A DNA stretch of 63,215 nucleotides, filler included, from Dirinaria sp. TL-2023a (lineage: Eukaryota): NCBI GenBank assembly GCA_051941275.1. It is 23 parts of 23 records of this genome, joined end to end, with 100 filler letters (N's around TTAATTAATTAA, not from the genome) between each part and the next. Parts side by side here need not be neighbours in the genome. Positions count along the whole stretch, not along the records: positions 16,650 to 19,319 come from JAVEBF010002229.1; 22 more parts are not named here. One strand, 5' to 3'. How positions within the stretch are numbered: position 1 is the first letter of the stretch; each line of letters begins with the position of its first letter. The notes below the pieces were generated by a model. That model was not told where the DNA came from, made no database searches, and saw only the letters and a program-made list of their open reading frames with translations. Positions 16,011 to 63,215 of the stretch are shown piece by piece. Made by a program: the position numbers and the translations under genes.

Positions 16011-17038
16011 GACTGAGATGAGATGGAGGTCATCGGTCGTACGGACACCAATGGAGCTTGCGGCGCCGCGGTCTGTATGATTTTAACGAATCTTAATGAC
16101 GTGAACATTTCTGTGCCTCTTGCAAACTACAATCCACCGTGCAAACATGGAAGGTTGCCCAAATTGGAAAGCAGTCTTCCAGCGCAGCTTTGTGCTTGCA
16201 GCGTTTTTCTCATTTGTTAACAATTATTGAGAATTCCACCTCAGCTCTTTTGGCATGGTGTTCTGAGCCCAGGCTTCTATCAAGGTGCCATTTCGAAGCC
16301 TGGCTGATTCCGAGCATCCGTCAAGTTACTTTGGCAAAGATGGATAAAACCTCTCATCGAAACGTTTCCCTTATTAAAATATTGTATGACCACATCAATT
16401 GCCTATAGAATCCTATAGGAAGTGGCGAAGTCTAGGCAGCAGAAAAACATTAGAAGGCAGCTCAAGCCGAGATGGAGGGAGCCCATTTCAGGCTCCCACT
16501 TGCTGCGCCCCTGCACTGCCTCGTGCTCCCTCGGTGCTCCCCCATGCTCNNNNNNNNNNNNNNNNNNNNNNNNNNNNNNNNNNNNNNNNNNNNTTAATTA
16601 ATTAANNNNNNNNNNNNNNNNNNNNNNNNNNNNNNNNNNNNNNNNNNNNTGGAATCTTTGATTGGAGCAGCCTTTTGAGCGATGTAGCTTTGCGCAGCTC
16701 TGACGACGCTGTAGAGTGAGATGGATATACCATTTGTTTGCACTCTGCTGAGTCTTCAAGAACGACGCATGCATTCGCTGGCAGAGGGGGGCGAAAATAG
16801 CGCCGCAGCAAATCACAGAAGTCTATCCCAACGGAAGGTGCTAAATTTAAGACGATTGGGTTAGTAACGGGGCAAGCAAGACAAGGGTTTGGCGCCATAA
16901 ACCCTTCGAAAGATGTAAATCCCATATTCGTCTTCAACTTTTTTGATACTGGAATGGTGGTGGATTCGGCTTCAAAATGGCGTTTGATGGACCGCTCAAG
17001 CTCGATAGTACAAGCACTCCGGTTCTTAGAGGGAATAT

Positions 17039-17212
17039 TGAAGTGACTGAGCAACAGGTGCAATAACATGCATTGTATTGGTCTAAGTCTATCGAGTGTG
17101 TGGGTTCTACATAAGGTAGAAACCCCGAGGCAACCACGCTAGTGGGCGCTAAGCCCTAATAGGGCAACAGTGCCGAGCAACACATCTCAGGGGCAACACA
17201 TTTCCATGAACA
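17039..17212 (-). repeat. Copia 3' LTR (about 174 bp)
   Basis: Begins TGTTCA immediately after the PPT. The probable end ...CTTCA at 17039 is inferred; there is no second copy to confirm it. Confidence 0.6.
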
Positions 17213-19319
17213 CCCCCCCTAGATGTTTGCCTCCTGACCACCAAATTTCAATCTAATAACCACCGCTTTTGCATCTTCAATGCAGCATACCTAGCATGCC
17301 TAGGAACCTTCGAAATTTGACCCTGCTCAACGCCTTTGTAAGGCCGTCGGCGGCCATGCTGTCGGTCGACACATAGTCGAGTTGTATTTGCTTTGACTCA
17401 ACTGCCTCCCGTATTCAATGATACTTAACATCAATGTGCTTCGTGCGACGGTGATGTTCTGAATTTTCCGTCAATGCGATTGCGCCCTGATTATCTGCAA
17501 GCAGGGGCACTGGTGTGGTCGATGACATAGCGTGTAATTGCGTCAATAACGATCGGAGCCATATGGCCTCCTTTCCGGCTTCAGAAGTTGCAACATACTC
17601 GGCTTCACATGTTGACTGTGTAACTAGGTCCTGTCTCTTTGAGGTTCACGATACAGGTCCTCCTGATAAATAAAAGATGTAGGCACCTGTTGAACGGCGA
17701 CCGTCGACGGCCCCGGCATAGTCAGCGTCAGTATACCCTATCAGGGCATCATTTCCTTCATAATGAATGTCATAATCAAGCGTGTCTTTGACGTATTGAA
17801 GCACACGCGTAACTGCTTTAACATGTGTTGAATCCGGGTTGCTGCAATAGCGCGATAAGAGTGCAAGCGCAAATGCCAAATCGGGCCTCGTCATAGTTGC
17901 TGCGTACATTAACGAGTCAATCACTGATGCATATCAATAAACGATATCTTTATCTGTCTGATGATTCTTATCAGTAGGCATTGCAATGCTTGGAAAGCCT
18001 TCTTCCATAGGTGTAGAGACTGCTTTGCAATTGGCCATGCCAAAGCGGTCTAAAACAGCTTTCAAATAAGTCGTTTGATTCAATGTGATTCGATTGTTTG
18101 CGCACGTGATTGACATGCTCAGGTAGTGCGAAATCTGCCCTAGGTCGGTCATCTTATACTGCTTTTGCAATTGCTCTTTAATGTGTCGCAAGTGTCCCCC
18201 ATCTGACCCAATCAGTAGTATGTCATCGACATAGACGCATATAAACGTAGTGTGGTCCTTGTCCACGAAAACTGAAGCGTCGGCTGCGGTAGAGGTAAAG
18301 TCTAGACTCTGAAGAAACTTCTGAATGACTTCATATCACACACGAGGTGACTGCCTAAGACCGTATAAAGCCTTCTGAAGCTCACACACTAGTGTAGGAT
18401 CTTTGATAAAATCGTCCGATTGTGTAACATAGATGACTTCATCTAAGAAGTCATATAGAAAAGCGGTTACAACATTCATTTGATAGATGTACAGACCGCG
18501 GGCGCCTGCCAGCGCAAACAGCGCACGAAATGAGGCGGGCTTGACTACATCTGCCCAAGTTGCTGTAAAGTCAACATCTGCAGTTTGCTTGTAGCCGTGT
18601 ACAACTCATCTTGTCTTGTATTTCAATATGTTGTCATCTAGGCCATACTTTATCTTGAAAACTCATCGATCGGTGATCACATGACGATCCTTAGGTAACT
18701 TAGTCAGCACTCACGTGCCATTTTCAATGTGTGAGGCAATTTCAATCTTCATGGCTTTCTGCCAATGTGGTCAATCAGGTGATCGACGTGCCTTCTTATA
18801 CGAGATAGGCTCGGTATGTGGTAATCTCAATGTGCGTGTAGCACGTGCACTGGCAAGCCCTAAGCCCTCGTCTATTGATAATGCACTTAGGATTCTCATC
18901 ATGTGTGCTTCACTCTTGCTCTTTCCACCCTTATGGATTTCTTTATAGTCAGGTCGTTGCGACTCATTCGCGGCAGAGCGAGTCTTTCTATCGCTAGGTG
19001 GTGGTAGGGGTGCTTTACCTCGTCGTCGCGGAGGTTTGTTTACTTCAGGATCAGGTGAAGCGGGCTCTGATGCAGGACCGGGATCAGTTTGGGGCTCAGT
19101 TTGCGGCTCAACTTGCCTTGGTTCAGTATGCTGAGTAGGAGGAGGCATTGTATTGCCAGGTAACAGGTCTTCATGAGCAACGTCATCGGCATCTGTTTGA
19201 TGATCTAACACATCTTGAAAGTCATCGTCAGAGTCATCGCCATCGTCATCGTCATGATCATGCGTGTCTGACGATGTGAGGTATGCTCTCTCTGTCAAAG
19301 ACCCAACCTTGGTTAGATA
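17039..19319 (-). mobile_element. Ty1/Copia LTR retrotransposon, 3' part (RT, RNase H, PPT, 3' LTR), inactivated
   Basis: ALYGLRQSPRV*, ICVYVDDILL, TRPDLAFA, GYTDADYAG, STCEAEY, RTKHIDVKYH*, MAADGLTK. Pol stop at 17277-79; PPT AGGGGGGG at 17213-20; 8 internal TGA stops. Confidence 0.96.
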
Positions 19320-20189: not shown

Positions 20190-21045
20190 CCACTGACTAC
20201 GGTAAAGTCCAAATTTGAACCTTCTCATCCCTTCATGACGTGGGATAGACGCTCTTTGATAGCGGATACCATTTCTTCTGATTTGGAAATATCTTCTGCC
20301 AGGGAGTCATAATGTCGGACTAATTTACGTACGAGATTTACGTCATACAACGTTCAATAAACTTTATTGCATTATGAGAGAATAATACGATTGTGTTCGT
20401 GACGTAATAATCAACGTACTCTGTTATTAAACGACTGACTGCTATTTCTTAATGCTGTAAATGACATGTAGAAACTGTGCAACACTAGAGTTGTCGATGA
20501 TCATTGAAAAGAGAAAAACAACGACATCAAGCTGACATTACTAAGTCACGTTTCTTTTTAAAAACGAGAGAAAAAGACACTGATTTCGTCAAAGTAAACA
20601 GTCTTCGATCGTTCGTCATCATTGACGATAAAGTTTTTTTCTCGATAAATCTTTTTACAGCGTTCGATCTCTTGCTTCAGTTAATTCTTGACTAACATCT
20701 CAGAGTTCGTTTTCGCTGATGTTGTCTCAGTCTTTAGCGCGAAATTCTCATGATCGACATGAGACGTTTCGAATCTCTTCTCAACAGCGTTCACTGATTC
20801 AGTGATAGTACTGTCTCGTAAAACAGTCGATGACTCGATTGTATTTGAAAGAAACGATCTAGACGTTAAGCGTGATCGTTGCTTTGAGAATGAGAGACCG
20901 ATCGCTGATATTGACTCACGCGATCTTGTTGTCATCTTTGAGAATTGTGTCATATTGACAGAGTCATGATTAAATTGCGTCTTTTTTGATTTGATGTTGT
21001 TTTTACGTTAATTTTTTCGTCATGTTTCTTCTCTGAGTTCCGTCA
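20190..21045 (-). pseudogene. Hypermutated Ulp1/C48 peptidase-like sequence, probably transposon-borne
   Basis: RIILS*CNKVY*TLYDVNLVRKLVRHYDSL back-mutates to IILPW...HWTLYDV...YDSL. The region is CC/GG-depleted; a GTAAGT donor lies at ~20189. Confidence 0.55.
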
Positions 21046-23329
21046 TTAAGCTTTTCAGACTGTCGAGAAACATGATATAATGCTCTCTTGAATTATGTTT
21101 CGAATACATGAAGAGAATCTTTTCTATCTCACTCAATGTCTGCACACGAATTAGTTGAGAAATGAATTAGAGAAATGCTATATACGAGAGCTAATTTTTT
21201 CGAAATCTGACTTATTCTATACTGCAAGTGAAATGGATTGATCTGAACATTTTGAGATAAAGAGTGTTAGGTCACATGACAGTACTTTTTTGCGTTCAGC
21301 ACAAAAAAATACTGTCATCTGACGCGACACAGCAAATGCGCGCATTCGAAAAAGACCTTATGCTGCATTACTTCGAAAGGATTTCTGACATCAGAGAAGC
21401 TCTTTTGAGTGATATTGAGGCTGAGAAAGCCTTCAGGCCTTCTCAAAGGCGCAGCTGACGTCGGAAACATCCTTCAATCCTACAGACCCAAATTTTCTGA
21501 TATTCAGAACGGAGAGGCTTGGGCGCGTACCTTGGTTCAAACGCTGGACGGGATGAAAGAGGCTAAGCACTGCACTAGCGGGGAATAAATCGTCAATCGG
21601 GACTCTTCGATCTCAAAATCAGACCCTTGCAACTGTGCGTAGGATTCTCACAAGGCACGGACGCGGTCATTCGGAGAAAGGCAATGCATGCCAACTACCG
21701 CGTCAACGTGCGCCATAAAATTTGCGCTAGAGGCTACGTAAAAAGAGCATATCATGATCTGCATTGCATCTTGGAGATCGAATACTCTAGCTGAAGGGTA
21801 CATTTCGTATTCTACTACTTCAAACATTTAGTGATGCGCTTCTCCAAGAACTTTGAGTCGGAGAATAGAACACGTTCTATGACTGCGTCATTCTTCGTGT
21901 GATCGCAGAATCTTTGAGATTACGCGCTACTGCAACTTCAAATACCCGAGCAGTGATAGACAGCATATTTTATGTGACACAAGGAATATAGGATATTGGG
22001 TTCTTTTCACTCATTGAGGTCAGGTTGGCGTCACAATTGAGGCCGAGCTACTGCACTGAGGCCTTTTTCAGAGTTCAACACACGAATGANNNNNNNNNNN
22101 NNNNNNNNNNNNNNNNNNNNNNNNNNNNNNNNNTTAATTAATTAANNNNNNNNNNNNNNNNNNNNNNNNNNNNNNNNNNNNNNNNNNNNGAGCCACTAAC
22201 GCAGCTACGAAAAGACCAATCGAATACGCTTTATCTATGAGAAAGGATTTCAAATAGCTCTCGCTAAACAGAGACATCCCTCCTATTTTGATACTCTTAC
22301 ACTAGACCTATTCAAGTAGTGCCTAGACCCAATCGGGTATAAAACACCTCGGATATACACTAAGCGAATTTTCCATGGAGGTCAGCGAGATGACATACAG
22401 GATGACGAGAGAAGGTTCAAATTTTTAGATAGATGAGAGTGCCATTTCATACACATTTCTCACGGCTTCTCTAGAGCTCTCAAGAGTATTTCAAAACCTA
22501 AAACATCTTTTTAAAACTCAGAAAGCATGCATGATATCGTCTAATTCACATGAAGAAAGTCGATAGTATAGCAGCTGAAATCTCAGAAACTGCCGTATTG
22601 TTAGATCTTCGACGAGACGATCTGACTTCGCTGTCATTCTAAATCTCGTCGTCGTCTCGAAACGTTATATGCTTGTCTGATCGTCTTTCAATTGACTATT
22701 CAGCATCATTTGCATTGAAAAAATGATAATTCTGATATGCGTTCAAACGCTGATAATTTCTCTTTTGTACAATTTTCGAAGATCTTCTGTCGCTTCTTCA
22801 ATTTATTTCTCACTTCAGAAGATCTATTTTTGAGCTTGCACACGACAAGCTCATTATATCTAATGTAATTCGACTTTTGCTCAAATTTAATATTAGCGAT
22901 CGTAGAACGAGAAGACAGAACTGAACTAAATAGTAGAGAAACTGAAGATGATCGAAATAGAGATGATGATGATGATGATGAAAATGATGAAAGTGAAGAC
23001 GTTGCTGATATCTGAATAATGAAATCTGCTAACTCATTAACTTCATCGTTGTCGATAGTGATCGTAACTCGATCAGTACTTGTTATGATTACTGTATTGC
23101 TTCTCACTGATTTGATAAATTGTCAATGAGAATGCGCATTCTCGAGAAATACAGCTTCACTCGCGATCGAAGACAGAGCGACATTAAATTAAATAGAAAC
23201 TTGCTCTTCAAAATGAAAGAGCATACACTACTCGTCAAGTATAGATTCGATGATCTCGAAAATCGCGAGAAAACGAAAGTCACTAGAGAGTAAATCTGTT
23301 AAAGAAAATGAACGTTGACAGAATAGATT

Positions 23330-23820
23330 ACATATACATTTAAATCGTCTGTCGCGCTTAGAAGCATGTAATATTTGATCGAAACTGATGTAGTTGAATC
23401 GAATCGAGAGAAAGTCAGATATGCAGATCTTGAGCGTTTCGTTCGATCAGTAAGAAATCTGTCACTGACGATCGATCAAGCTGCATCATATCTCAAGAGC
23501 TACGACAAAATCTCGAAAGTAAACGTCAATTGACAAGAACTTAGATGTTTTCATGAAAGAACGATCTGTTCAGTTATGAAGAGAAATCGATCGTGACTAC
23601 ATTCGTGTCGAGTTCTGAAGAAATCTCACAGACAGCGTCAGACGCTGTGATTTTTCTTCGAATTCTTTGTTTCTGTGATCTCGAGCGTATCTCAATCAGC
23701 ATCTTGAAACAAAAATGTGACGTCGTGTCTCAGAAAGACAGACGTGCTATATTCATAGCATCAACGATCAACAAGCTCGAGACGATTATCGATTTATTTA
23801 AGTCTTCAATACGTATTTTC
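23330..23820 (+). pseudogene. Hypermutated NB-ARC (NLR-like) gene fragment
   Basis: ADLERFVRSVRNLSLTIDQAASYLK (ancestral GNLPLAIDQAASY) and DAVIFLRILCFCDLERISISIL (ancestral CFCDPExIPISIL). Confidence 0.7.
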
Positions 23821-24955
23821 GGTCGGCGACGAGGTCTATCTGTACGCGGTGCCGGCTACGAACCTGTTGTTACTACGGTATACAGCAGAGCCAAATGACC
23901 TCACGACGCGAAGAGCCGATCTCAAAGCGTTGACTACAAGGGACACTGACATACGAAAATTATTCGACGCGTTGTTTACTTGACTCGTACTCAGGCTCGA
24001 AGTTGAACTTATTATTCAGTGAACGTGATATCGTTTACACACGCGACAGAACACTCTTGAGCTCACATCTGCTCTGAGATCGTCACAGCTTCGGCGAGAG
24101 CGAAGCGACGAGAGCGAAGAAATCTTTAAAGCTCTATCTCACTCGTACTGAGGCTCGAAGCAGTTACTGAGCGTGAAGATAGCTGTGAATGTGATATCGT
24201 TCTAGAACTAGAGAGAATAAGAACTTGATTAGTAAGAGACGATCGAACTACACTGTCGACGTGAGCGTAGCAGACGAAATCTCTTGCAAGACATGATCGA
24301 TCTGTCATAGCGAGAGCTTTACAGATATCACGAAACAGTAGCATTATTGTTGCTGCGAGGCGAGGCATATAATGACGACGACGAGTTGATCTTTGAGATC
24401 TCATCTCTTCAATGAGCTCTGATCTCAAATGTTCGTGAGAATGTGATCACGTCACAGTCATGACATCGTCTATATGACCCGAGAGAACGAATGCGCATGT
24501 CGATGTGTATACAGACGGGACTGTCGTTGCTACATGCTTAAGGAGCAAACTTCAGTCGACTCTGAGTTGAGAGACCTGCCTCATCTCAAGAGTACCATCT
24601 CCAAAAAGCAGAGAAAACAGGGGTAGGGTTCTGAATAAGCAGAACACGTCGAACCTACAGATCGATTGGGGGCTAGATAACGCCGCGGGCGCCACAGCAG
24701 CGATACGAATGATCCTATCCACTGGTCTACTTAGTCAGTTTCAGGCAGTCGCTGGTCATTCAGATTCAGATCCTTCAAATTCTTAAACTCATAGAGTTCT
24801 CGCATGGAGGATTTCCTAGTACTACGGATAGATGAAACGGCATGTAATATAGAGGNNNNNNNNNNNNNNNNNNNNNNNNNNNNNNNNNNNNNNNNNNNNT
24901 TAATTAATTAANNNNNNNNNNNNNNNNNNNNNNNNNNNNNNNNNNNNNNNNNNNN

Positions 24956-33393: not shown

Positions 33394-33432
33394 CTTCGAG
33401 TTTTTCTCTTAAAAGATTGAAGTGATTAAAAT

Positions 33433-33845
33433 TGTAAAATCGTATGCGTCGATTATTCGTCGACGCAGTATTTATGTGAAAAACGTGATAGTGTAATAGG
33501 TTATACGACTATCTGATACTGTAATTTCTGCTAAAACTAATCACTAAGAATCTTTTCTCGAAAAAGTGAATGATTCTTTATACTTAATTGCGAGCGTCAA
33601 CATTATCTCATTATGACGAGTTTCGCGCTGACGAATTACGAGCGCTCATAGACACAATACTCTATAAGCGTCAACTGCTCACTGACTTCTAGTCAGTCTC
33701 GAGATTCAGTCTTTCGACGCTAACTTCTAGACGGCGCTAGCCATGCTTCAGACCTCGAAGGATTGCCCCTGAGCACCCCCGACTGCCAAGCGGCGCTAGT
33801 CTGCATTGGTCAATATATATCAATGTATCAGATATCACTGTTACA
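33433..33845. repeat. LTR (413 bp, TGTAA...TTACA), hypermutated
   Basis: 5-bp terminal inverted repeat. The 3' part matches 33245-33393 and the 5' part matches 57424-57556. Confidence 0.8.
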
Positions 33846-35210
33846 TCGTGTGAAGAATCTCATAATATTTCAACAAATTCTGAACGAGACAACATCAGAC
33901 AATGTATCTGTCTCGACTCACAAAATTAATACGATTATCGAACGAGAGCAGAAAACGAAATTCGACGACGAATTCGAATAAAATAATAACGTATTTCGAG
34001 AATTAAAAAATAATACATTCGACGAAAAAATATAAATCGACGTGATCGACGCGATCGAACGAATGTTAAACAATGATGCAACTCGAGAACAAAAAATTTC
34101 GAGACATACAAACACATTAGTGTTAAATCGAGAAAATGCGACGATAAAAAATTGATACGATTATCGACTCTGTTGTACTTATTACTGTTGAATACATCGA
34201 CAGCGAGAATGCGATGACGCAGTGAATGATATAATTCACGAAACAATCGATGATATAAAATTACTCACGAAACAGCGATATGAGAATGTTAATTATTGAT
34301 TAACGTGTATTATATATGTTTCGAACGAGATACATCGTTTAAAAAAATACGAAAACTGAGTTTTTAAACACACGATATTCGAATTACAACAAATCATCGA
34401 GAAAAAACGATCGAGACACTCTGAATTAACAGCGATCAAATGTAACGAAAAACAATATGTAACTCATCGAGAGAAAAAAACAAAACACTCGAGTTTACAT
34501 TCATCGATTTGTTACGACGACGCATGCATGATTTATTACGAGAAAAATTAGAGACTAGCTGATTTCTCAGAGAATCACAGACAGAAAAAAACTCGAAAAA
34601 CGACAAGACTTTTCAGTAAAAAGCATACTGAAGAAATGCAATATTACGACTCAAAAATACATTAACGCAACAGATCAAACACGTATATTCGAAACGTCGA
34701 TATGAATCAATGATAATCGATTGACGACAATGATCGATTCGAAAACAATCGAAAACTTTATGACACGACATCGAGCAGAGCAATACGAGTTTACTACTCA
34801 GATTAAAAATGAAGTGTATAATTTAGTGACAATTGACGAGAACTCACTAACAAATAACAAAAAAAGAGTGAATAAAAAAACATTATCACTCATGACGATT
34901 ATTCAATATTATCGTGAGAAATTTATCTTTGCCATTGTAAACATGATCAAATACAATGTTGTATTGAAAATGTTTTGATTGAAGAAACACAATTTCAGCA
35001 TTGACTAAAGAAAAAAAATACTCAAATTTGAGAGATGCGAATGCGACATCGCAACTGAACTCATATGTCGACAGAGAACGATGATGAACGAGAAAACTAC
35101 TAAATGCGAATTAGCAGTTTCGAATAAAAATAATTCGAGAAGATTCGACTCAACAGATATCGACACAGATTAGCAGAATCAGAAAATCAGAGTTCAAAAA
35201 AAAGTAACGC
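33846..35210 (+). mobile_element. Hypermutated Ty3/Gypsy gag-protease relic
   Basis: MIDSKTIENFM (ancestral MIDSGATxNFM) and VVLKMF*LKKHNFSID* (ancestral VVLGMPWLKKHNPSIDW). Almost no CC or GG remains. Confidence 0.8.
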
Positions 35211-35696
35211 ATTGTTGCGTCCTATCAGTCTATTATCTAGGATTAGATCCTAAATAGGAAAGGTGCTAGAGTTTGATCTGTTTGAAGAGATCTGTCAAGA
35301 AACAACGAGTGTCTTCAAGATGATATAACGATATCACAACAAGATACAAGTTATTCTGAGCAGTAAATAACTATTGCAAAGATATTGAACACGATGTTAG
35401 AAAAACGTCGTGTTGAAATTTTATATACATCTCGCTCAGAACTGTTAAGATTTTTTGCTCAGTTCTGCTCAGTTGCTCAGTTCACTGAGCATTATTAATC
35501 AACTGAGCACTGCTCAGTGTCAAGTCTTTTTGCTCAGTACTGATTAAGCTCAGAGTTCACTAATCAGTTTCTAACTCTCTCGCTAACTCTAGATGTCAGA
35601 TCAAAATCGTAACATCATCTCTTTTTTAGATTAGCGTCGTTTCGATGTTTATATAGCGTCTTCTGTCTCTTTATTTCTTATTCATAACTCTTCGTC

Positions 35697-35897
35697 ATGT
35701 CAACTCGTAAATCTAAGTTCAGCATCGTTCGTCGTCATTTATTAGCAGAATTTATTAAGCTTTACGATGACAAAATAATTAAGAAATGCTTCATCTGTGT
35801 CAAGCACTCTCGCAGCTGTAAGATGCACATTAGCTCTGATAAATGTAATGAGTGTTTTCGTCGCGATCAGCGTTTCGACATTCGTGTGACGCAGTTC
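35697..35897 (+). pseudogene. Retroelement-associated Cys-cluster ORF (Zn2Cys6-like spacing), mutated and truncated
   Basis: KCFICVKHSRSCKMHISSDKCNECFRRDQRFDIRV, preceded from ~35212 by an LTR-like segment with many GCTCAG/CTGAGC repeats. Confidence 0.5.
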
Positions 35898-46877: not shown

Positions 46878-46977
46878 NNNNNNNNNNNNNNNNNNNNNNN
46901 NNNNNNNNNNNNNNNNNNNNNTTAATTAATTAANNNNNNNNNNNNNNNNNNNNNNNNNNNNNNNNNNNNNNNNNNNN

Positions 46978-47702
46978 ACAATGTATTTCTGAAACTCGAC
47001 GAGATACTTGACGTAAGATTTGTTAGCTTGTTTAAGGTTATTGATCTTGTTCTGAGCAGTCGTAGTACGATCGAGATCGTCGAATGTTTCTTGCATCCAG
47101 ACGAAGAACTGCTCAGGGGTATCAATCACGCCGATACCATGAGTGGACGATCCGCCTTCGATGATGGGCAAAGCTTGGTCGGCGGCGGAGCCGGAAAGTC
47201 GTGAGTGTAGGTAGTAGGTCATACTACGAAGAGTTTCTTCTTCTGTATCTCCCACAAAGTGGTCTCGATTACGATCGAGCTTGATGCGACAATTAAAAAG
47301 AAACGAGCGTAATTCCTCGCGTTTGGTCCCATCGAACTTATCTGGGTCAGGATGTTTCGAGCTTCGCTCTTTCTTGGGATGAGACGTAAGGGAGGAGAGC
47401 CGAGTCACTTCGGCAGTATGTTGACGATTAAGGTCTTCGACAATTTCGTTGTTAAGGTCTAAACGGGTATTGAAGTCGAAGACTTGCTTGGTAGAGTGAT
47501 CTTCCATGGCTCGAAGGTTTCCAACTACATGGGCGAAGAGGTTGTACCAGGCACCGGGATTCTCCTTGACAGCTTCACTCCAGGCATCCTTACCTTGTTG
47601 AGCGACCTCGAGGTCAGGGAGGTCCGGCAGAGTATGATAAGGTTGATAGCCCTGTGGTCTATCACCAAGAGGTAGAGGTAGGTCGCGAGAAGAATCACCC
47701 AT
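46978..47702 (-). CDS. Retrotransposon Gag, 3' truncated
   Basis: KHPDPDKFDGTKREELRSFL...YLHSRLSGSA...AQNKINNLKQANKSYVKYLVEFQ. Confidence 0.88.
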
Positions 47703-48131: not shown

Positions 48132-49613
48132 TTAATCTAGGTCGGGAGTGCCCTCTCGATCGTACTGTGCCCAGGAATCATTACCTGGTGCTCCCGGGTG
48201 AGCTTTGTAGAATTCCTCAATTAGTTCGGTGGAGTCCAGATATTCTATTGGTTCCCAGGTTTGCGTAGTGTCAGTCCATTCGATCAGGAAGTGTAGATGG
48301 TTTTGTCTGATCTCGGAAGCATGGATAGCCTTGTATTCCCAGTGCTCATTGCCTTCATTGTCAGTATGGTCAGGGCGTGGTTTTGGAGGCAGTTGCCCTG
48401 GTAATGGGTCGTTGGCGGTCTTCCTTAGGAGCGAGGTATGAAAAACGTTATGAATCGTCCAATTGTCTGGAAGTTGGAGACGATAAGCATGAGGGCTAAC
48501 TACCTGTATTATTTCGAAAGGTCCGTCGTTCTTGTTGGCTAATTTCTTGCTGGGGCGCTTCGTTCTCATGTTCCTAGTATCTAGCCAGACCTTATCTCCA
48601 ACGACATATCGAGGTCCATGTGTTCGATAGGAGTTGGCGTAGTGTTCGTGCCACGCTTGAGCCCATCTCATCTGTGCTTGAAGTTCTTGGTTGATAGAGT
48701 CCATTTTGTCAGCATAATTATTGGCGCGAGTACGGAGTAGTAATCGTCTGGTTGTAAGATCATAGTCTTTAAGATTTCGGGAAGGTTCAAAACCCATATT
48801 TGGATGTTGGCCAGAGTTTGCGAAGAACGGAGTACAACCAGTTGATTCGGATACATGATTATTGATAGCAAATTCGGCCGAAGGAGTCCATCTTGCCCAA
48901 TCGTCTTGAAGATAGGCGCAGAAGGCTCGAAGGTATTGCTCGACTATACTGTTAGCACGTTCCGTCTGACCATCCGTTTCCGGGTGGTATGCGGTAGATA
49001 ATTGGGCTTTAGACTTTAGACGAAGGCATAACTCGTCCCAGAAGTGGTTTTCGAACTGTGAACCACGATCCGTAATCATGGTTTTGGGTAACCCGTGGTG
49101 CTTCCATACGCTGGAATGATACATCTTGGCCACGTTTTGAGGAGTGAGTTCTGTGATCGGCTCTACGTGGACCATCTTTGAAAGGCGATCAGTAATAACC
49201 ATCATGTTTTCGCAGTTAACTCCCCAGTTGTTCTTGCTCGGAGGTAACCCAACGACGAAGTCCATTGAAATATCGTCCCAACGTCGTTCAGGGACGGACA
49301 GAGGATGAAGAGCTCCGGAGTATTTATTCCTGAAGGCTTTGGTGCGGGAGCAATGTCGACAGTTGCGGGTGAATTGGCGTATATCTTGAGTCATACCGAT
49401 CCACCAATAGTTTCGGGCGAGGATATCAGAAGTCTTTGCAGCGCCTGGATGGCCAGCGCTCGGAGTATCATGAGCCAAACGGATGAGTCGAAGCCGCAGT
49501 TCTTGATCTTGTGGAACCATTAATCGACCATTTTCCCAGTGATTTTCATCGTCATAAGTGACTCTTTTGGCTCGATACTGTACCTGTTCATCGACTAAAG
49601 AGCATTCTGCTAG
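48132..49613 (-). CDS. Pol C-terminus: integrase (HHCC, DDE, GPF) + chromodomain
   Basis: AHDTPSAGHPG...CRHC, ISMDFV, ITDRGSQF, DGQTERAN, DGPFEII, IHNVFHTSLL, HFLIEW...TWEP. Confidence 0.95.
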   Translation of the reverse strand, partial: LAECSLVDEQVQYRAKRVTYDDENHWENGRLMVPQDQELRLRLIRLAHDTPSAGHPGAAKTSDILARNYWWIGMTQDIRQFTRNCRHCSRTKAFRNKYSGALHPLSVPERRWDDISMDFVVGLPPSKNNWGVNCENMMVITDRLSKMVHVEPITELTPQNVAKMYHSSVWKHHGLPKTMITDRGSQFENHFWDELCLRLKSKAQLSTAYHPETDGQTERANSIVEQYLRAFCAYLQDDWARWTPSAEFAINNHVSESTGCTPFFANSGQHPNMGFEPSRNLKDYDLTTRRLLLRTRANNYADKMDSINQELQAQMRWAQAWHEHYANSYRTHGPRYVVGDKVWLDTRNMRTKRPSKKLANKNDGPFEIIQVVSPHAYRLQLPDNWTIHNVFHTSLLRKTANDPLPGQLPPKPRPDHTDNEGNEHWEYKAIHASEIRQNHLHFLIEWTDTTQTWEPIEYLDSTELIEEFYKAHPGAPGNDSWAQYDREGTPDLD

Positions 49614-56767: not shown

Positions 56768-57063
56768 TGTCATGAACCAGACCCTTATGGGCCTGATCAC
56801 ATGACTAGGTTACATGATCTCCTGGACCCTGGACCCTGAAGCAGATCCCCTGGATACCACATGTGTGTGGAAAGGTCTATACCAAGTGTTTTGTTAGAGG
56901 TGTTGTGTTTTTGCCTGATCAGGTTAGCGTCCTCGGACCGGTGTTGTTCCGATCCCACATTTAAACCTGCCTGTATTTAGATTTCCTTTCCTTTTCTTCT
57001 TCATAGATAGTGTCCTAGTCTATTTGTACCCATATGTCATTGAGCGCTGTGCAGGCCCTGACA
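56768..57063 (+). mobile_element. Nested solo LTR (296 bp)
   Basis: TGTCA...TGACA with a perfect TSD ACCAA; related to 62832-63215. Confidence 0.88.
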
Positions 57064-57282
57064 ACCAAGGTTGAGTCTTTGACAATTTACGCTTTATCGA
57101 AGTCTCTACATTTTGTCGCTACTCTCTAGTGTGTTTTAGCTGATATCTGATAAGCGCTTTGACTCGCTTTCTAGCTTATTTAAAATAGTCACTTGCTTGT
57201 AACAAGCAATGAGCAATCGATATGACTGTAAAGACGATTTCAACGATAGAAAGTTATAATTAAAGCTATACTTCTCGCGACA

Positions 57283-57423
57283 TGTCAGGGCCTGCACAGC
57301 GCTCAATGGCATATGGGTACAAATAGACTAGGACACTATCTATGAAGAAGAAAAGGAAAGGAAATCTAAATACAGACAGGTTTAAATGTGGGATCGGAAC
57401 AACACCGATTCGAGGACGCTAAC
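57283..57423 (-). repeat. Inverted partial copy of the 56768-57063 LTR
   Basis: Near-identical reverse complement of ~56923-57063, interrupted at 57424 by another LTR. Confidence 0.85.
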
Positions 57424-60031: not shown

Positions 60032-61789
60032 GATAATGATCAAGTAGGTAGAAAGCTATTGGGCTCAGAAGGAAAGTCCGGGTAGAGGCAACACAGATTC
60101 GTTAGAGAGAAAGGTTTGGGTTGTGACGTATGCAGTCGTCCGGGCTTGGCTTGATCTACAGCACATTATTGAGGTAAGGTATTGATCCACGCCAGAGATA
60201 AGTCAGCTCTAGGAAAACTTGGCGAATGCTTATACATTTGATATCTCTTCGCAGATATGATACACTGATTAAATGATATGGATAAGCAGCTTCTCCAGGA
60301 AAATCGATGCTTTTCAAGCGCTTCAATTTCACCCCAACTTTTGAAATCCAAAAATATGATAATTATTGCAAACATCGATCCTTGAAATCCGTCACATCAT
60401 TGAAAGTACATCAAATAGCTTTCCGCTAAAGATGACAAGCCCCCCTGGGCTTGACCAAGTATGCGTAATGCTTTCGATCAAATCGCCCCTATACAAGCCC
60501 ANNNNNNNNNNNNNNNNNNNNNNNNNNNNNNNNNNNNNNNNNNNNTTAATTAATTAANNNNNNNNNNNNNNNNNNNNNNNNNNNNNNNNNNNNNNNNNNN
60601 NAATACCACAAACTTTAAAGTCCTATCAAAACGATTCAGTGCTTGAGATCGCGGTGAGAAGAGTCGATGAGTCGAGATCTAGTTCTTCACGGGCTTCAAC
60701 TTATTAAAATACCTTAGTTCTTGCGCCACCAAGATGTCACCAAAATCTTTCTGTACTCAAGACACTCGAATTTTAGCTCTTATTCAAATGATACTCCTGC
60801 TTCATTTTTCGGCGATGTGGATTGAGGAACAAGGGAAAAATAATTGACGCAGCATCCTCCTAGCTCGAACCAGATCCCCATCTCCTCCTGTTGCACAAAA
60901 TGGCCGGAGACACAGGCTCTTACTTTAAATACAAGACATGGAATATCAATCTCTGTTGAATATAAAAAATGAAAGACCCTTAAAAACTTGGCAAAAACAT
61001 TCAAGCCTCATCCCCAATACAACCAATTTCAAAAAAAACATTAACGCGATCGATCGTGAAAGCTATTACTCCCAAAAAATCTACAAACAACCATCACTTC
61101 ACAACTGGACGAGATCAAGCTCCTAAACACATATTTCTCTCTACGTCTCATTGCAACAAGCCCACTCACTCCAATACCAATAAGACGAAATCAGATCATA
61201 CGATGGTACGAGCGACTCAGATTGACACGGAGCATTTGACAAAGATGCTGCGCAGGGAAAATTGTTGTGACGAGGTCAACTTCAATTACATTGTTCCCAA
61301 TCACGTTCTTTCAGTTCAATTATTTCAAACTGTTACGGCTAGAATATGCTAGGATATTGGCATCATGATTCCTTCTTAGCATAGCTTCTTAGCTTTAGCT
61401 CACGTCACTAAGGATAAGCAAGATCTACTGACAGGCAAGTTCGCCAAAGCAAAAGATAATCCAGAAGCTAGGCAGCTTTCCGAGTCGTCCCGCAATTTCC
61501 TTATTTACCAAAGACAATAACAGATCGAGGACGACCCCTCCCAAAAGACCAAGTCTCGAGTTAAGAATCTCAGTTTCTTAATCATGAATTTCGACTTTAT
61601 AATGACTTTTTCGAAGTCGTACTCTCAAACTGTCTGTTTTTCGATTATCAGGCAGTCAGGATGATTGAAGAAGGGTCGACGTTCATCAATTTACATTCGA
61701 GTGATTACACGATCGACGAAAAATCACGGGCAAATCGAACAAATAAAAAAGAGACAGCGAAAACAAAACGCAAACACGTATGATATTAT

Positions 61790-62831
61790 AAAATTATCGA
61801 GAGTTATGTTTTTGTTAAAAACGAAATTTATTCTCTGAGCAACAAACACGATGTGCAAATGAAATGTATAGTTCAGACGAGATTTTTTGAATCATCATCA
61901 TTATCAAAAGAATCAAAACAGCTCAAACACTCGAAGAAAACAAAAAAATTCATCACAAATAGATTTAGCTTTTTGATCGATCACAGTATTATTTTCAACT
62001 CGAAATCTTTACATGAAACTATTGAAACGAATATATGATGAAAAGTTTCTCATTCGATTAATTCGAGACTGAATACATTAACACGAATCGTTCTCGAGAC
62101 AAACGTATACAACGTCACGAAAATCAATTTTTCTCGAACTGAGAATGCATCACAGACATGAACTGTAATAAACGTTTCAGTTGAGAGCAATAATATCGTT
62201 TTTGTTATCTCATTCTTCGAACAATCAATTGTAAAGAACTTTGATTCGTACAAAGATTATTGAATTGCCGCAGTAAATAAGTCAATAAAAATGTCTGCTC
62301 TCTCGAAAATACAGATTAAAATCTTTGATTCATCGAAGATTCACCACTCTGTTTCGATTCAACTGATATCGAAATTGCAAAAGAATGATAAACAAGATAA
62401 CAAAACAAAAAAAGAAAATAATATCGAAGACGAGCAAAATGATGATGAAAAAGATTTCGAGAATGACGAAAATCAAGAAAATGCAATTGATAACATCAGT
62501 GAACGGAAAAATGAGAATATCATCAATGATGAGTTAATGAATATAAATGTAACGTCGTTACTCAAAAAATGTCTCAAACTATCGTTTTCGACGCTTTTAT
62601 CTCAACTGCAACTATGCTCTCGACGATTCAACATCACGAATCAAATTCTACTATTATCATGAAAAAAACAAAATCGAAATGTAATTTATCATGTTCATCG
62701 TCGTTAAAAAACGAGCGATTTTTCACAAAATCATTTACGAAACGATAAAAAGATCGATTTACATCATCGTTATCGCTCAAATTCGAGAATAACAAGTTTC
62801 GAGATATCATTAAAACAATTCGAGTTTTAGA
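61790..62831. pseudogene. Heavily hypermutated repeat/ORF relic of unknown family
   Basis: AT-rich, almost no CC/GG, abundant TCG/CGA; broken long plus-strand frame with TGA stops. Confidence 0.55.
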
Positions 62832-63215
62832 TGTCATGAACCTAGACCTGGAGCACCTTAGATCAGGTCACATGATCAGGTCACATGATCAGGCCCAGCG
62901 TTCTCTCGAACCGATATTGCTCCGAGTCCCTATTTGAGTCTTCCTGTAGATAGATTTCCTTTCCTTTTCTTCTTCATAGTTAGTGTCCTAGTCTACTAGC
63001 ACTCATATGTCATTGAGCGCTGTGCAGACCCTGTCATGAACCTAGACCTGGAGCACCTTAGATCAGGTCACATGATCAGGCCTGGCGTCCCCCCGGACCG
63101 ATATTGCTCCGGGTCCCTATTTGAGTCTTCCTGTAGATAGATTTCCTTTCCTTTTCTTCTTCATAGTTAGTGTCCTAGTCTACTAGCACCCATATGCCAT
63201 TGAGCGCTGTGCAGG
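62832..63215 (+). repeat. Two head-to-tail LTR copies (62832-63031 and 63032-end)
   Basis: Both start TGTCATGAACC and share their 3' end with LTR 56768-57063. Copy 1 has one extra 13-nt GATCAGGTCACAT unit. Confidence 0.88.

Follow-up and report, generated by a model that had tools for sequence, protein, structure and literature searches.

The window analyzed here is a 63,215-nucleotide stretch of Dirinaria sp. TL-2023a (assembly GCA_051941275.1). It comprises 23 contigs of 2.6-2.7 kb each, separated by linkers of 44 N, TTAATTAATTAA and 44 N. Contig 7 (2.67 kb) carries on its minus strand a degenerate Ty1/Copia pol gene (Table 1), whose frame starts at 19319, open at the contig edge, and runs across 680 codons. 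A ninth TGA, at 17277, coincides with the point where homologs stop; past it, the frame continues with TAG at 17253, TGA at 17187, and TAG at 17139. The element is identified as Copia by the order RVT_2 then RNase H and by homology to Copia polyproteins (1701 homologs). The best homologs, at 55-57% identity, carry gag, integrase, and RVT_2 domains, which is the Copia Pfam set. The LTRs, gag, and integrase of the element lie outside contig 7. A tblastn search with nine Copia proteins matched one of the 23 contigs, contig 7, and self-BLAST of the window revealed no second Copia copy among them.

Table 1. Features of the window, in positions along the whole stretch. The RVT_2 coordinates were converted from residue numbers.
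Feature	Position	Strand	Basis or content
Contig 7, carrier of the Copia relic	16650..19319	.	N-linker boundaries; GC 0.467, rho(CC/GG) 0.83
Degenerate Ty1/Copia pol (integrase linker end, RT, RNase H)	17277..19319	-	8 internal TGA; terminal TGA 17277-17279
RVT_2 reverse-transcriptase domain	18003..18722	-	Read-through residues 200-439; Pfam PF07727, E=1.5e-60
TGA at Trp position, residue 183	18771..18773	-	Frame read and homolog alignment
TGA at Trp position, residue 203	18711..18713	-	Frame read and homolog alignment
TGA at Trp position, residue 219	18663..18665	-	Frame read and homolog alignment
TGA at Trp position, residue 238	18606..18608	-	Frame read and homolog alignment
TGA at Trp position, residue 328	18336..18338	-	Frame read and homolog alignment
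TGA at Trp position, residue 462	17934..17936	-	Frame read and homolog alignment
TGA at Trp position, residue 558	17646..17648	-	Frame read and homolog alignment
TGA at Trp position, residue 635	17415..17417	-	Frame read and homolog alignment
918-bp tract, contig 8	20318..21235	.	2 CC, 0 GG vs ~58 expected (own composition); both sides nearer normal
1228-bp tract, contig 9	22594..23821	.	0 CC/GG vs ~82 expected (own composition)
Short repeat, hypermutated copy	33430..33548	.	19/21 differences run C>T or G>A toward this copy
1413-bp tract, contig 13	33809..35221	.	1 CC, 0 GG vs ~74 expected
Ty3/Gypsy aspartic-protease relic; Gly, Pro, Trp replaced	34577..35137	+	Inside the contig-13 tract; phmmer, BLASTP
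635-bp tract, contig 13 end	35263..35897	.	0 CC/GG vs ~43 expected
Short repeat, GC-richer copy, contig 21	57421..57539	.	Pairs with 33430..33548
1112-bp tract, contig 23	61730..62841	.	2 CC, 1 GG vs ~51 expected

The initial annotation had described eight internal stops in the pol frame, all of them TGA, most at conserved Trp positions and without any frameshift. We reproduced the stops and the unbroken frame exactly, on the minus strand, and all eight stops align to W in each of the three closest homologs. When 50 homologs were considered, the W counts at the eight stop columns were 26, 49, 50, 45, 50, 22, 45, and 20 (in the order reported). W is the commonest residue in seven of these columns, the eighth having F in 21 homologs and W in 20. 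Among the Trp-type codons of pol we counted three TGG, eight TGA, and no TAG; the exclusive change to TGA (8/8) has a two-sided binomial p of 0.008. The Gly to Asp and Pro to Ser replacements named earlier are present as well (G217D, G290D, G468D, G512D, P301S, and P620S). At alignment positions with at least 70% conservation, 12 of the 23 Gly columns are still G and 8 have become D, the other three being S, A, and K; the 11 Pro columns read 7 P, 3 S, 1 A, and no L. An additional change, D282N, lies inside RVT_2 at a column that is D in 50 of 50 homologs. Gln codons, described as untouched, are indeed spared, with no stop over 10 conserved Q columns. Site-normalized nonsynonymous transitions at conserved pol residues amount to 20/64 for CpC, 4/49 for CpG, 1/35 for CpT, and 1/67 for CpA (CpC vs all other contexts, Fisher p=1.4e-7). 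Both strands are affected, unequally: on the coding strand, G>A is found at 17/43 sites and C>T at 3/21 (p=0.049). An inequality of this kind is not predicted by a strand-symmetric process. In Neurospora, single RIP events are likewise strand-biased.

Beyond the Copia relic, five tracts in contigs 8, 9, 13, and 23 are nearly devoid of CC and GG (Table 1). Over their 5306 bp they hold 6 CC/GG, where their own composition predicts ~307 and the frequency in normal contigs ~612. In the remaining 19 contigs, the longest CC/GG-free gap is 36-219 bp, and in the 13 contigs taken as the normal set, as in gene-bearing contigs, rho(CC/GG) is 0.88-1.06. The corresponding values for contigs 8, 9, and 13 are 0.54, 0.34, and 0.29, with rho(TC/GA) at 1.33-1.56. 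Each of the seven trinucleotides that contain CC has become 2.9- to 5.2-fold rarer, and CA/TG and CG are steady. In the tracts, the frequency of CpA is 0.0616 (0.0681 in normal contigs) and that of CpG 0.0549 (0.0555), with a CpG rho of 1.91. Within each tract CC and GG are both close to zero. In CC-poor DNA, TC/GA is up and CT/AG is flat. Neither classical RIP index signals RIP in the tracts, TpA/ApT lying at 0.50-0.82 and (CpA+TpG)/(ApC+GpT) at 1.01-1.28; that standard indices under-call the signal had been anticipated. Pfam returned no match in any of the six frames of contig 9, in one frame of contig 13, or in three frames of contig 23, and Rfam had no matches across the window. The tracts of contigs 8 and 9 are known from composition and are left out of the repeat or transposon assignment. 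In contig 12, which carries an NB-ARC gene, stops are of mixed type and lie within a multi-frame region.

The longer tract of contig 13 contains a Ty3/Gypsy relic. A phmmer search of a library of 1.84 billion proteins returned 133 matches for it. The top match (P0242, E=1.1e-34) has RVP_2, RVT_1, and RNase H domains, and BLASTP gave 41% identity across 195 residues (E=2e-43). Self-BLAST of the window found only short repeats, shared among contigs 4, 13, 14, 21, and 23. The copies of these repeats differ from each other by C<->T or G<->A at 80 positions and by a transversion at 16. By context, the C<->T differences amount to 49/119 for CpC, 15/119 for CpA, 14/129 for CpT, and 2/73 for CpG, and the copy-to-copy alignments show CC>TC, GG>GA, and CCC>TTC. 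Some transposons escape: contig 18 holds an intact, unmutated Gypsy integrase ORF. Likewise, the public locus L016 has an intact RT ORF, and a homolog search with it matched another intact Gypsy RT.

The same signature is found in public data. Of the 133 relatives of the Gypsy relic, 35 have no Gly and no Pro at all across 3984 residues, 34 have less than 3% Gly/Pro, and the remaining 64 average 9.2%. A related-locus search with P0254 gave 136 relatives, many of them on contigs of one accession prefix, and a search with P0246 gave no confirmed relative. Our external set comprises 80 related loci (L001-L080) on public metagenome contigs. Of these, 45 have a rho(CC/GG) below 0.25. Runs of 1 kb or more without any CC or GG occur in 69, the longest reaching 7329 bp (~89 expected). 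Insertions of ~6 kb hold 0-5 CC+GG per 500 bp, compared with 45-105 in their flanks. Overall, the signature recurs in ENA- and JGI-derived protein predictions and in contigs with seven accession prefixes.

Comparison of 79 copies with the reference copy, L015, yielded 63112 C>T/G>A transitions, 16883 reverse transitions, and 19616 transversions. External rates rest on surviving sites because L015 is already CC-poor; read in this way, five lightly mutated copies differ from the least-mutated copy at 409/673 CpC (61%), 662/2981 CpA (22%), 729/3416 CpT (21%), and 263/2207 CpG (12%) sites. The CpC changes are equal on the two strands (203/349 vs 206/324). Neither the -1 nor the +2 base has much influence, the rates by -1 base being 0.51-0.66. 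In these external loci every C context is mutated, TpA/ApT is ~1.0-1.18, and CpG rho goes up to 2.28. Copies at a GC content of 33-36% are already down to 2-13 CC+GG per 500 bp. Methylation-driven CpG decay was considered and rejected, as CpG frequency is unchanged in the window tracts and CpG is the least mutated context in the repeat pairs and external copies.

We consider it likely that these data reflect RIP, or a RIP-like C-to-T hypermutation directed at repeats and transposons, with CpC as the preferred target and the Copia pol as a lightly mutated case. In the data, CpC becomes TpC on one strand, read as GpG to GpA on the other; the changes are almost exclusively transitions and affect the two strands of one and the same DNA. 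The 3' neighbor, and not the 5' neighbor, sets the target, and the action ends at the edges of transposon insertions. Saturation removes all CC and GG and leaves CpA and CpG in place. In the more heavily mutated copies on related public contigs, the other contexts follow, in the order CpC >> CpA = CpT > CpG. The coding outcome is TGG to TGA (never TAG), GGN to GAN, and CCN to TCN. The agent may be the RIP machinery of fungi, in the form of a RID-type enzyme resembling DNA methyltransferases whose preference has shifted and whose substrate would be duplicated duplex DNA during the sexual phase. No RID- or DIM-2-type gene was present in the scanned ORFs of the 23 contigs.

Several hallmarks of RIP are recognizable. 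C:G to T:A transitions are found in the window repeat pairs and in the external copies. Mutated repeats with spared flanks are seen for the Copia element, the Gypsy relic, the short repeat family, and the external insertions, with contigs 8 and 9 outside this statement. Both strands are hit in the tracts and the external copies, and unevenly in Copia. The dominance of CpA>TpA, with raised TpA/ApT and lowered (CpA+TpG)/(ApC+GpT), is not found. Every element of the initial reading that was put to the data is borne out. The 5' C of CpC was proposed as the mutated base, which agrees with the rise of TC/GA without a rise of CT/AG and with the CC>TC and GG>GA changes between copies. Action on both strands is evident from the joint loss of CC and GG in the tracts and the equal external strands. 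CpA is not preferred, the repeat pairs, pol columns, and external copies being all led by CpC. The targets are transposon or repeat DNA, and gene-bearing contigs and insertion flanks are normal in CC/GG. CpA rates equal to or above those of CpC, a lack of context bias, or an equal bias in single-copy genes had been named beforehand as grounds for abandoning this reading, and none of them was observed.

Other explanations have to be weighed against a CpC-preferring RIP. A separate CpC-specific mutator might clear CC/GG from transposons, ordinary RIP at CpA and CpT being a second layer that is absent or weak in the organism of the window. This would account for the window tracts, where CpC alone is down, CpA and CpG being near their normal frequencies. 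It would also fit the external loci, which lose CpA and CpT too and have TpA/ApT at ~1.0-1.18, and the scarcity of CC+GG in external copies at 33-36% GC. However, a single enzyme with a graded preference yields the same series upon saturation, and no classical-RIP tract with CC/GG retained was seen in the data examined, so that we regard a separate mutator as unlikely. In Neurospora, CpA stands apart at low RIP intensity and the contexts converge at high intensity, according to the preprint of Mazur and Gladyshev (bioRxiv 10.1101/344036). The window tracts with CpA untouched differ from the external loci with all contexts mutated, so two processes or species-specific preferences may apply rather than one dose series. 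Quite improbable in our view is a non-enzymatic route, in which silenced transposons are methylated at CpC and the methylated cytosines then deaminate spontaneously and slowly over evolutionary time. Fungal repeats are commonly methylated, and an equal direction and 3'-neighbor logic would be expected from such decay. Yet saturation is complete over 1-7 kb with few other substitutions (of the 21 differences in the 119-bp repeat pair, C>T or G>A accounts for 19), the insertion edges are sharp, and CpG, where methylation decay classically shows, is unaffected or enriched (rho 1.91 in the window tracts, reaching 2.28 in the external loci).

Another candidate is an APOBEC-like enzyme that edits the single-stranded cDNA of retroelements while it is being reverse-transcribed. 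In its favor, both identified targets are LTR retrotransposons, and G>A exceeds C>T on the Copia coding strand (17/43 vs 3/21). AID/APOBEC enzymes read the 5' neighbor. APOBEC3G acts on CC and turns Trp codons into stops by mutating the 3' C on one strand (GG>AG, TGG>TAG), whereas here it is the 5' C of CC that changes, on both strands, giving TGG>TGA. Since the 3' neighbor is decisive and the -1 base minor (0.51-0.66), CC and GG are lost from one and the same tract, the external copies show no strand difference (203/349 vs 206/324), and short non-coding repeats are also mutated, such editing is very improbable. The assembly is highly fragmented, which might raise the suspicion of a sequencing, base-calling, or assembly artefact, or of the chance decay of one pseudogene. 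This is scarcely credible, as the signature is common to this assembly, to the ENA/JGI protein predictions, and to seven accession prefixes, with normal flanks on the same contigs, and chance is excluded by the Copia statistics (p=1.4e-7) and by contig 9 (0 observed vs ~82 expected). Finally, TGA could encode Trp in this organism and the Copia pol be intact, in line with eight of eight TGA at Trp positions. We give this virtually no weight, because TGA ends 5 of 10 long ORFs, including a zinc-finger ORF of 720 residues with 100% coverage by its best homologs, which are 699-729 residues long. Moreover, the long ORFs encode Trp as TGG (up to 16 each) without in-frame TGA, and pol has also gone from Gly to Asp at eight conserved columns and carries D282N.

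The CpC-preferring process resembles RIP of Neurospora crassa and other Pezizomycotina in its C:G to T:A direction, its confinement to repeats with sharp edges, its action on both strands, its 3'-neighbor target, and its graded saturation. In Neurospora-type RIP, by contrast, CpA leads and the stops are TAA/TAG, whereas here CpC leads, the stops are TGA, and the indices are negative. CpA dominance is typical of RIP and not universal: as covered in PMC2621366, CpA leads in most RIP fungi, and CpG in the MATE element of Aspergillus nidulans and in Microbotryum. Basidiomycetes with TpCpG- or CpG-biased RIP-like hypermutation, as described in PMC2621366 and PMC4014442, offer another likeness, since Microbotryum and Rhizoctonia solani AG8 share a non-CpA bias in transposon-directed C>T hypermutation. 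They differ in targeting CpG, the context hit least in our counts (2/73 in repeat pairs and 263/2207 externally; 4/49 in pol). RIP in lichen-forming Lecanoromycetes (Cladonia rangiformis, Xanthoria) is similar in its AT-rich, sharply bounded transposon compartments and in having retrotransposons as the main targets, and RID and DIM-2 homologs have been reported from C. rangiformis in the text of PMC12542154. The two lichen studies define RIP by GC below 35% or by RIPper indices (PMC12542154, PMC13486527); in the main texts of these two papers the word "dinucleotide" does not occur, and no CpC preference was found there. The initial annotation knew of no CpC-dominant RIP, and the literature survey that it called for agrees: no description was found in the openly readable full-text literature, most subscription journals and supplements being outside this scope. 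The mentions of "CpC" examined in that literature were RIPCAL legends or definitions, table rows, lists of depleted dinucleotides, strain names, and author initials.

A wider proposal, which we advance tentatively as plausible and short of probable, is that a clade, probably of lichen-forming ascomycetes, possesses an essentially strict-CpC mutator of duplex DNA. Such a mutator would be fully saturating and either separate from RID-dependent RIP or a re-targeted form of it. Much of the "AT-rich dark matter" might then be CC/GG-free DNA misread by RIP indices, binning, and gene callers. That binning of lichen metagenomes loses AT-rich sequence of the mycobiont is already known (text of PMC9907504). 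TpA/ApT-type indices miss a stage in which only CpC is mutated, and hence such genomes probably contain more RIP than is called. Predicted "proteins" without Gly or Pro also arise from CC/GG-free DNA; some of these predictions retain Trp, which makes us suspect a gene call under a code that has TGA as Trp. A cytosine mutator of duplex DNA with a clean CC rule would be of interest to DNA deaminase research. So far, CpA has been treated as the RIP target, with a few lineages assigned to CpG. A lineage in which CpC is mutated first and driven to extinction would, if confirmed, provide a natural handle on the part of the enzyme that reads the 3' neighbor, and would indicate that the specificity of this genome defence can be re-set.

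The Copia pol relic of contig 7 carries a pattern of substitutions that is real and lies far beyond chance. Its read-through matches the Pfam family RVT_2 (E=1.5e-60), with the closest polyprotein homologs at 55-57% identity and the named ones (Fusarium, Macrophomina, Penicillium, Aspergillus) at about 40-44%. All eight internal TGA codons reported in the initial annotation were found at exactly the same coordinates (17415, 17646, 17934, 18336, 18606, 18663, 18711 and 18771), and a ninth in-frame TGA, at 17277, corresponds to the end point of the homologs. As had been proposed for most of them, the stops lie at conserved Trp: all eight align with Trp in the three closest homologs, and Trp is the commonest residue among 50 homologs at seven of the eight columns, the eighth showing F 21 times and W 20 times. 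Three TGG are kept among the Trp-type codons, next to eight TGA and no TAG. The changes claimed for Gly (GGN>GAN) and Pro (CCN>TCN) were likewise recovered at columns conserved at 70% or more, with 23 Gly columns reading 12 G, 8 D, 1 S, 1 A and 1 K, and 11 Pro columns reading 7 P, 3 S, 1 A and no Leu; none of the 10 Gln columns selected in the same way holds a stop. Taking as sites each C or G whose transition alters a conserved residue, grouped according to the base that follows the cytosine, transition rates were 20/64 at CpC, 4/49 at CpG, 1/35 at CpT and 1/67 at CpA (CpC versus all other contexts, Fisher p=1.4e-7). Both strands are mutated but unevenly (coding-strand G>A 17/43, C>T 3/21; p=0.049).

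A recoding of TGA as Trp was rejected, because five of ten long ORFs terminate at TGA, long ORFs encode Trp by TGG without in-frame TGA, and the pol, which would then be intact, is altered at invariant residues, including D282N. Upstream of the Copia reverse transcriptase, the linker at 19150-19319 (minus strand) contains an Asp-rich run at residues about 19-32 of the read-through. Such a run could be acidic by nature, as part of the linker, or could have arisen through GGY>GAY changes; homolog alignments in this part are too poor for comparison.

The 23 contigs of the window are unplaced, measure 2614-2678 bp each in descending size, and are joined by linkers of 100 bases (44 N, TTAATTAATTAA and 44 N; for example, 2679-2778). 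Hence, positions 1-63215 are not a single locus, and the adjacency of contigs means nothing. Per contig, the dinucleotide odds ratio rho(CC/GG) is 0.54 in contig 8, 0.34 in contig 9 and 0.29 in contig 13, the normal set being 13 contigs at 0.88-1.06. The TC/GA odds ratio is raised to 1.33-1.56 in the same three contigs, and weaker CC/GG depletion is found in contigs 23 (0.71) and 11 (0.74). At the contig level, the depleted contigs keep a TpA/ApT of 0.60-0.71 and a normal CpA/TpG. Each of the seven trinucleotides that contain CC is reduced, by a factor of 2.9 to 5.2. TCA, TCG and TCT are enriched but CTN are not, and therefore the 5' C of CC is the base that changed. The depletion clusters in long CC/GG-poor tracts of contigs 8, 9, 13 and 23, which are listed in the table; their own composition predicts about 307 CC/GG in total, and the longest CC/GG-free run per contig in the other 19 contigs is 36-219 bp. 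Inside the tracts, CpG and CpA frequencies are at normal-contig levels, and the classical RIP indices (TpA/ApT 0.50-0.82; (CpA+TpG)/(ApC+GpT) 1.01-1.28) score them as not RIP-affected, which bears out the expectation that standard indices under-call this process. The contig-9 tract includes a GATGAT/GAAGAT triplet run (22930-23000), an acidic stretch in one frame, for which a Gly-rich repeat altered by GGT>GAT is one possible origin.

Coordinates of the zinc-finger ORF, the Copia relic and the CC/GG-poor tracts
Feature	Contig	Position	Strand	CC/GG	Basis
Zinc-finger ORF, 720 residues		11197-13359	-		homolog comparison
Copia pol relic	7 (16650-19319)	17277-19319 (frame from 19319)	-		RVT_2 and Copia polyprotein homologs
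Tract	8	20318-21235		2	
Tract, 1228 bp	9	22594-23821		0	
Tract	13	33809-35221		1	
Tract	13	35263-35897		0	
Tract	23	61730-62841		3	

Pfam matches of the long ORFs include 2EXR/DUF7730 (weak, under the curated cut-offs), NB-ARC and C2H2. The top relatives of the zinc-finger ORF share 90, 87 and 81% identity with it, and the taxonomically named ones, at about 41-51%, are all lichen-forming Lecanoromycetes. On the evidence of this one protein, the source was treated as a Lecanoromycetes-like ascomycete. The NB-ARC (NLR-type) gene fragment of contig 12 (30487-33144) was checked for light hypermutation; on its plus strand GG outnumbers CC about two to one, rho(TC/GA) is 1.34 and stop codons are of mixed type.

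Short repeats common to contigs 13, 21 and 23 differ almost exclusively by transitions. In the 119-bp pair 33430-33548/57421-57539, the AT-rich copy has the T or A at 19 of the 21 differences (C>T or G>A), with changes such as CC>TC, GG>GA and CCC>TTC. Across six aligned pairs, two of which reuse one contig-21 segment, C/T differences affect 49/119 CpC, 15/119 CpA, 14/129 CpT and 2/73 CpG sites, with 16 transversions. Contig 21 also has 141-bp inverted arms (56923-57063 and 57283-57423, 97% identical) enclosing a 219-bp CC/GG-free spacer (57070-57288), and tandem copies related to these arms occupy the end of contig 23 (62832-63214).

Pfam gave no match in contig 9, nor in the frames scanned of contigs 13 and 23. 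When the 33887-35143 read-through, with X in place of stops, was searched by phmmer against 1.84 billion representative proteins, 133 matches were returned. The best of them, P0242 (E=1.1e-34; 41% identity across 195 residues), carries retroviral protease, RVT_1 and RNase H domains, which identifies the contig-13 tract as a Ty3/Gypsy relic. Within the protease motifs of this relic, Lys, Glu or other residues stand in for Gly, Phe or Ser for Pro, and a stop for Trp. Among the 133 relatives, 35 lack both Gly and Pro over 3984 residues, 34 more fall below 3%, and the average of the 64 left is 9.2%. These proteins stem mostly from ENA assemblies and in a few cases from JGI, NCBI or Logan. Public catalogues list relics of hypermutated Gypsy elements as predicted ORFs free of Gly and Pro (P0243, P0245, P0246, P0248 and 31 others), and the retention of Trp in some suggests gene calling under a code in which TGA means Trp. 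Contig 18, of normal CC/GG content, holds an uninterrupted Ty3/Gypsy integrase ORF (48132-49520, minus strand; 462 residues, 16 TGG) and a weak gag match (46926-47702, minus strand). This element escaped hypermutation and may be young or active.

Another relative, P0254, retrieved 80 loci of one Gypsy family of about 6 kb from public metagenome contigs with seven accession prefixes. Rho(CC/GG) is below 0.25 in 45 of them, and CC/GG-free runs reach at least 1 kb in 69 and at least 2 kb in 33, the longest being 7329 bp (L079) versus about 89 CC/GG expected. Insertions such as those in L028, L068 and L073 have 0-5 CC+GG per 500 bp at 20-27% GC, and their flanks 45-105 at 45-58% GC; copies at 33-36% GC (L015, L023, L037) have 2-13 over most of the element. 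Since the reference copy (L015, the least mutated) is itself CC-poor, the context rates describe surviving sites: 409/673 (61%) at CpC, 662/2981 (22%) at CpA, 729/3416 (21%) at CpT and 263/2207 (12%) at CpG in five lightly diverged copies, and 74, 48, 41 and 36%, respectively, in all 79 copies. Neither strand is favoured in the five copies, and their rates vary little with the -1 and +2 bases. Heavily mutated copies are affected in every context, with TpA/ApT at about 1.0-1.18. One locus contains an intact GC-rich Gypsy RT/RNase H ORF of 614 residues (L016:8441-10285, minus strand), which matches a JGI protein at 100% identity; immediately next to it, the contig carries a copy of the other Gypsy family that has been stripped of CC/GG.

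Trinucleotides, repeat pairs and external copies all show that the 5' C of CpC is mutated, as the initial annotation had held, under a rule set by its 3' neighbour. The changes are transitions, fall on both strands and, where targets were identified, are restricted to transposons with sharp edges; their intensity is graded and reaches saturation. A RIP-like, CpC-targeted reading is supported, and the process would be RIP, or a mechanism constructed in a similar way, that prefers CpC. Enzymes of the DNA-methyltransferase type, such as RID, typically follow a 3'-neighbour rule, whereas AID/APOBEC deaminases take their context from the 5' base. Editing of cDNA is an improbable source, since the strands are hit symmetrically and the 3' neighbour sets the rule. 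Slow deamination of methylated CpC is unlikely too: the loss is saturated, other changes are scarce and CpG is spared. An artefact is unlikely because the signature recurs in several independent data sources and the flanks on the same contigs are normal. A separate CpC-specific enzyme may act on top of ordinary RIP, and the tracts of the window, which show CpC loss only, would agree with this.

The available text of the RIPCAL paper (PMC2621366) names CpA as the dominant context for most fungi, CpG alongside CpA for the MATE element of A. nidulans, and CpG/TpCpG for Microbotryum; it defines a (CpC+GpG)/(TpC+GpA) index and reports no CpC-dominant case. Strong RIP is described in Cladonia rangiformis, together with RID and DIM-2 homologs (PMC12542154), and in Xanthoria (PMC13486527), defined via GC content or RIPper indices; the term 'dinucleotide' is absent from the main text of both papers. 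No description of a CpC-preferring RIP was found in the full-text literature searched, which covers a minority of subscription journals. We class the process as working like RIP; the CpA preference typical of RIP proper was not found. Its CpC dose behaviour matches the 'RIP saturation' that the accessible part of a Neurospora preprint describes for CpA (bioRxiv 10.1101/344036). A saturating, deterministic rule would drive every copy toward one CC/GG-free sequence. Copies would thus remain alike, and able to be recognised, for as long as any target persists, which may explain the completeness of the CC/GG loss.
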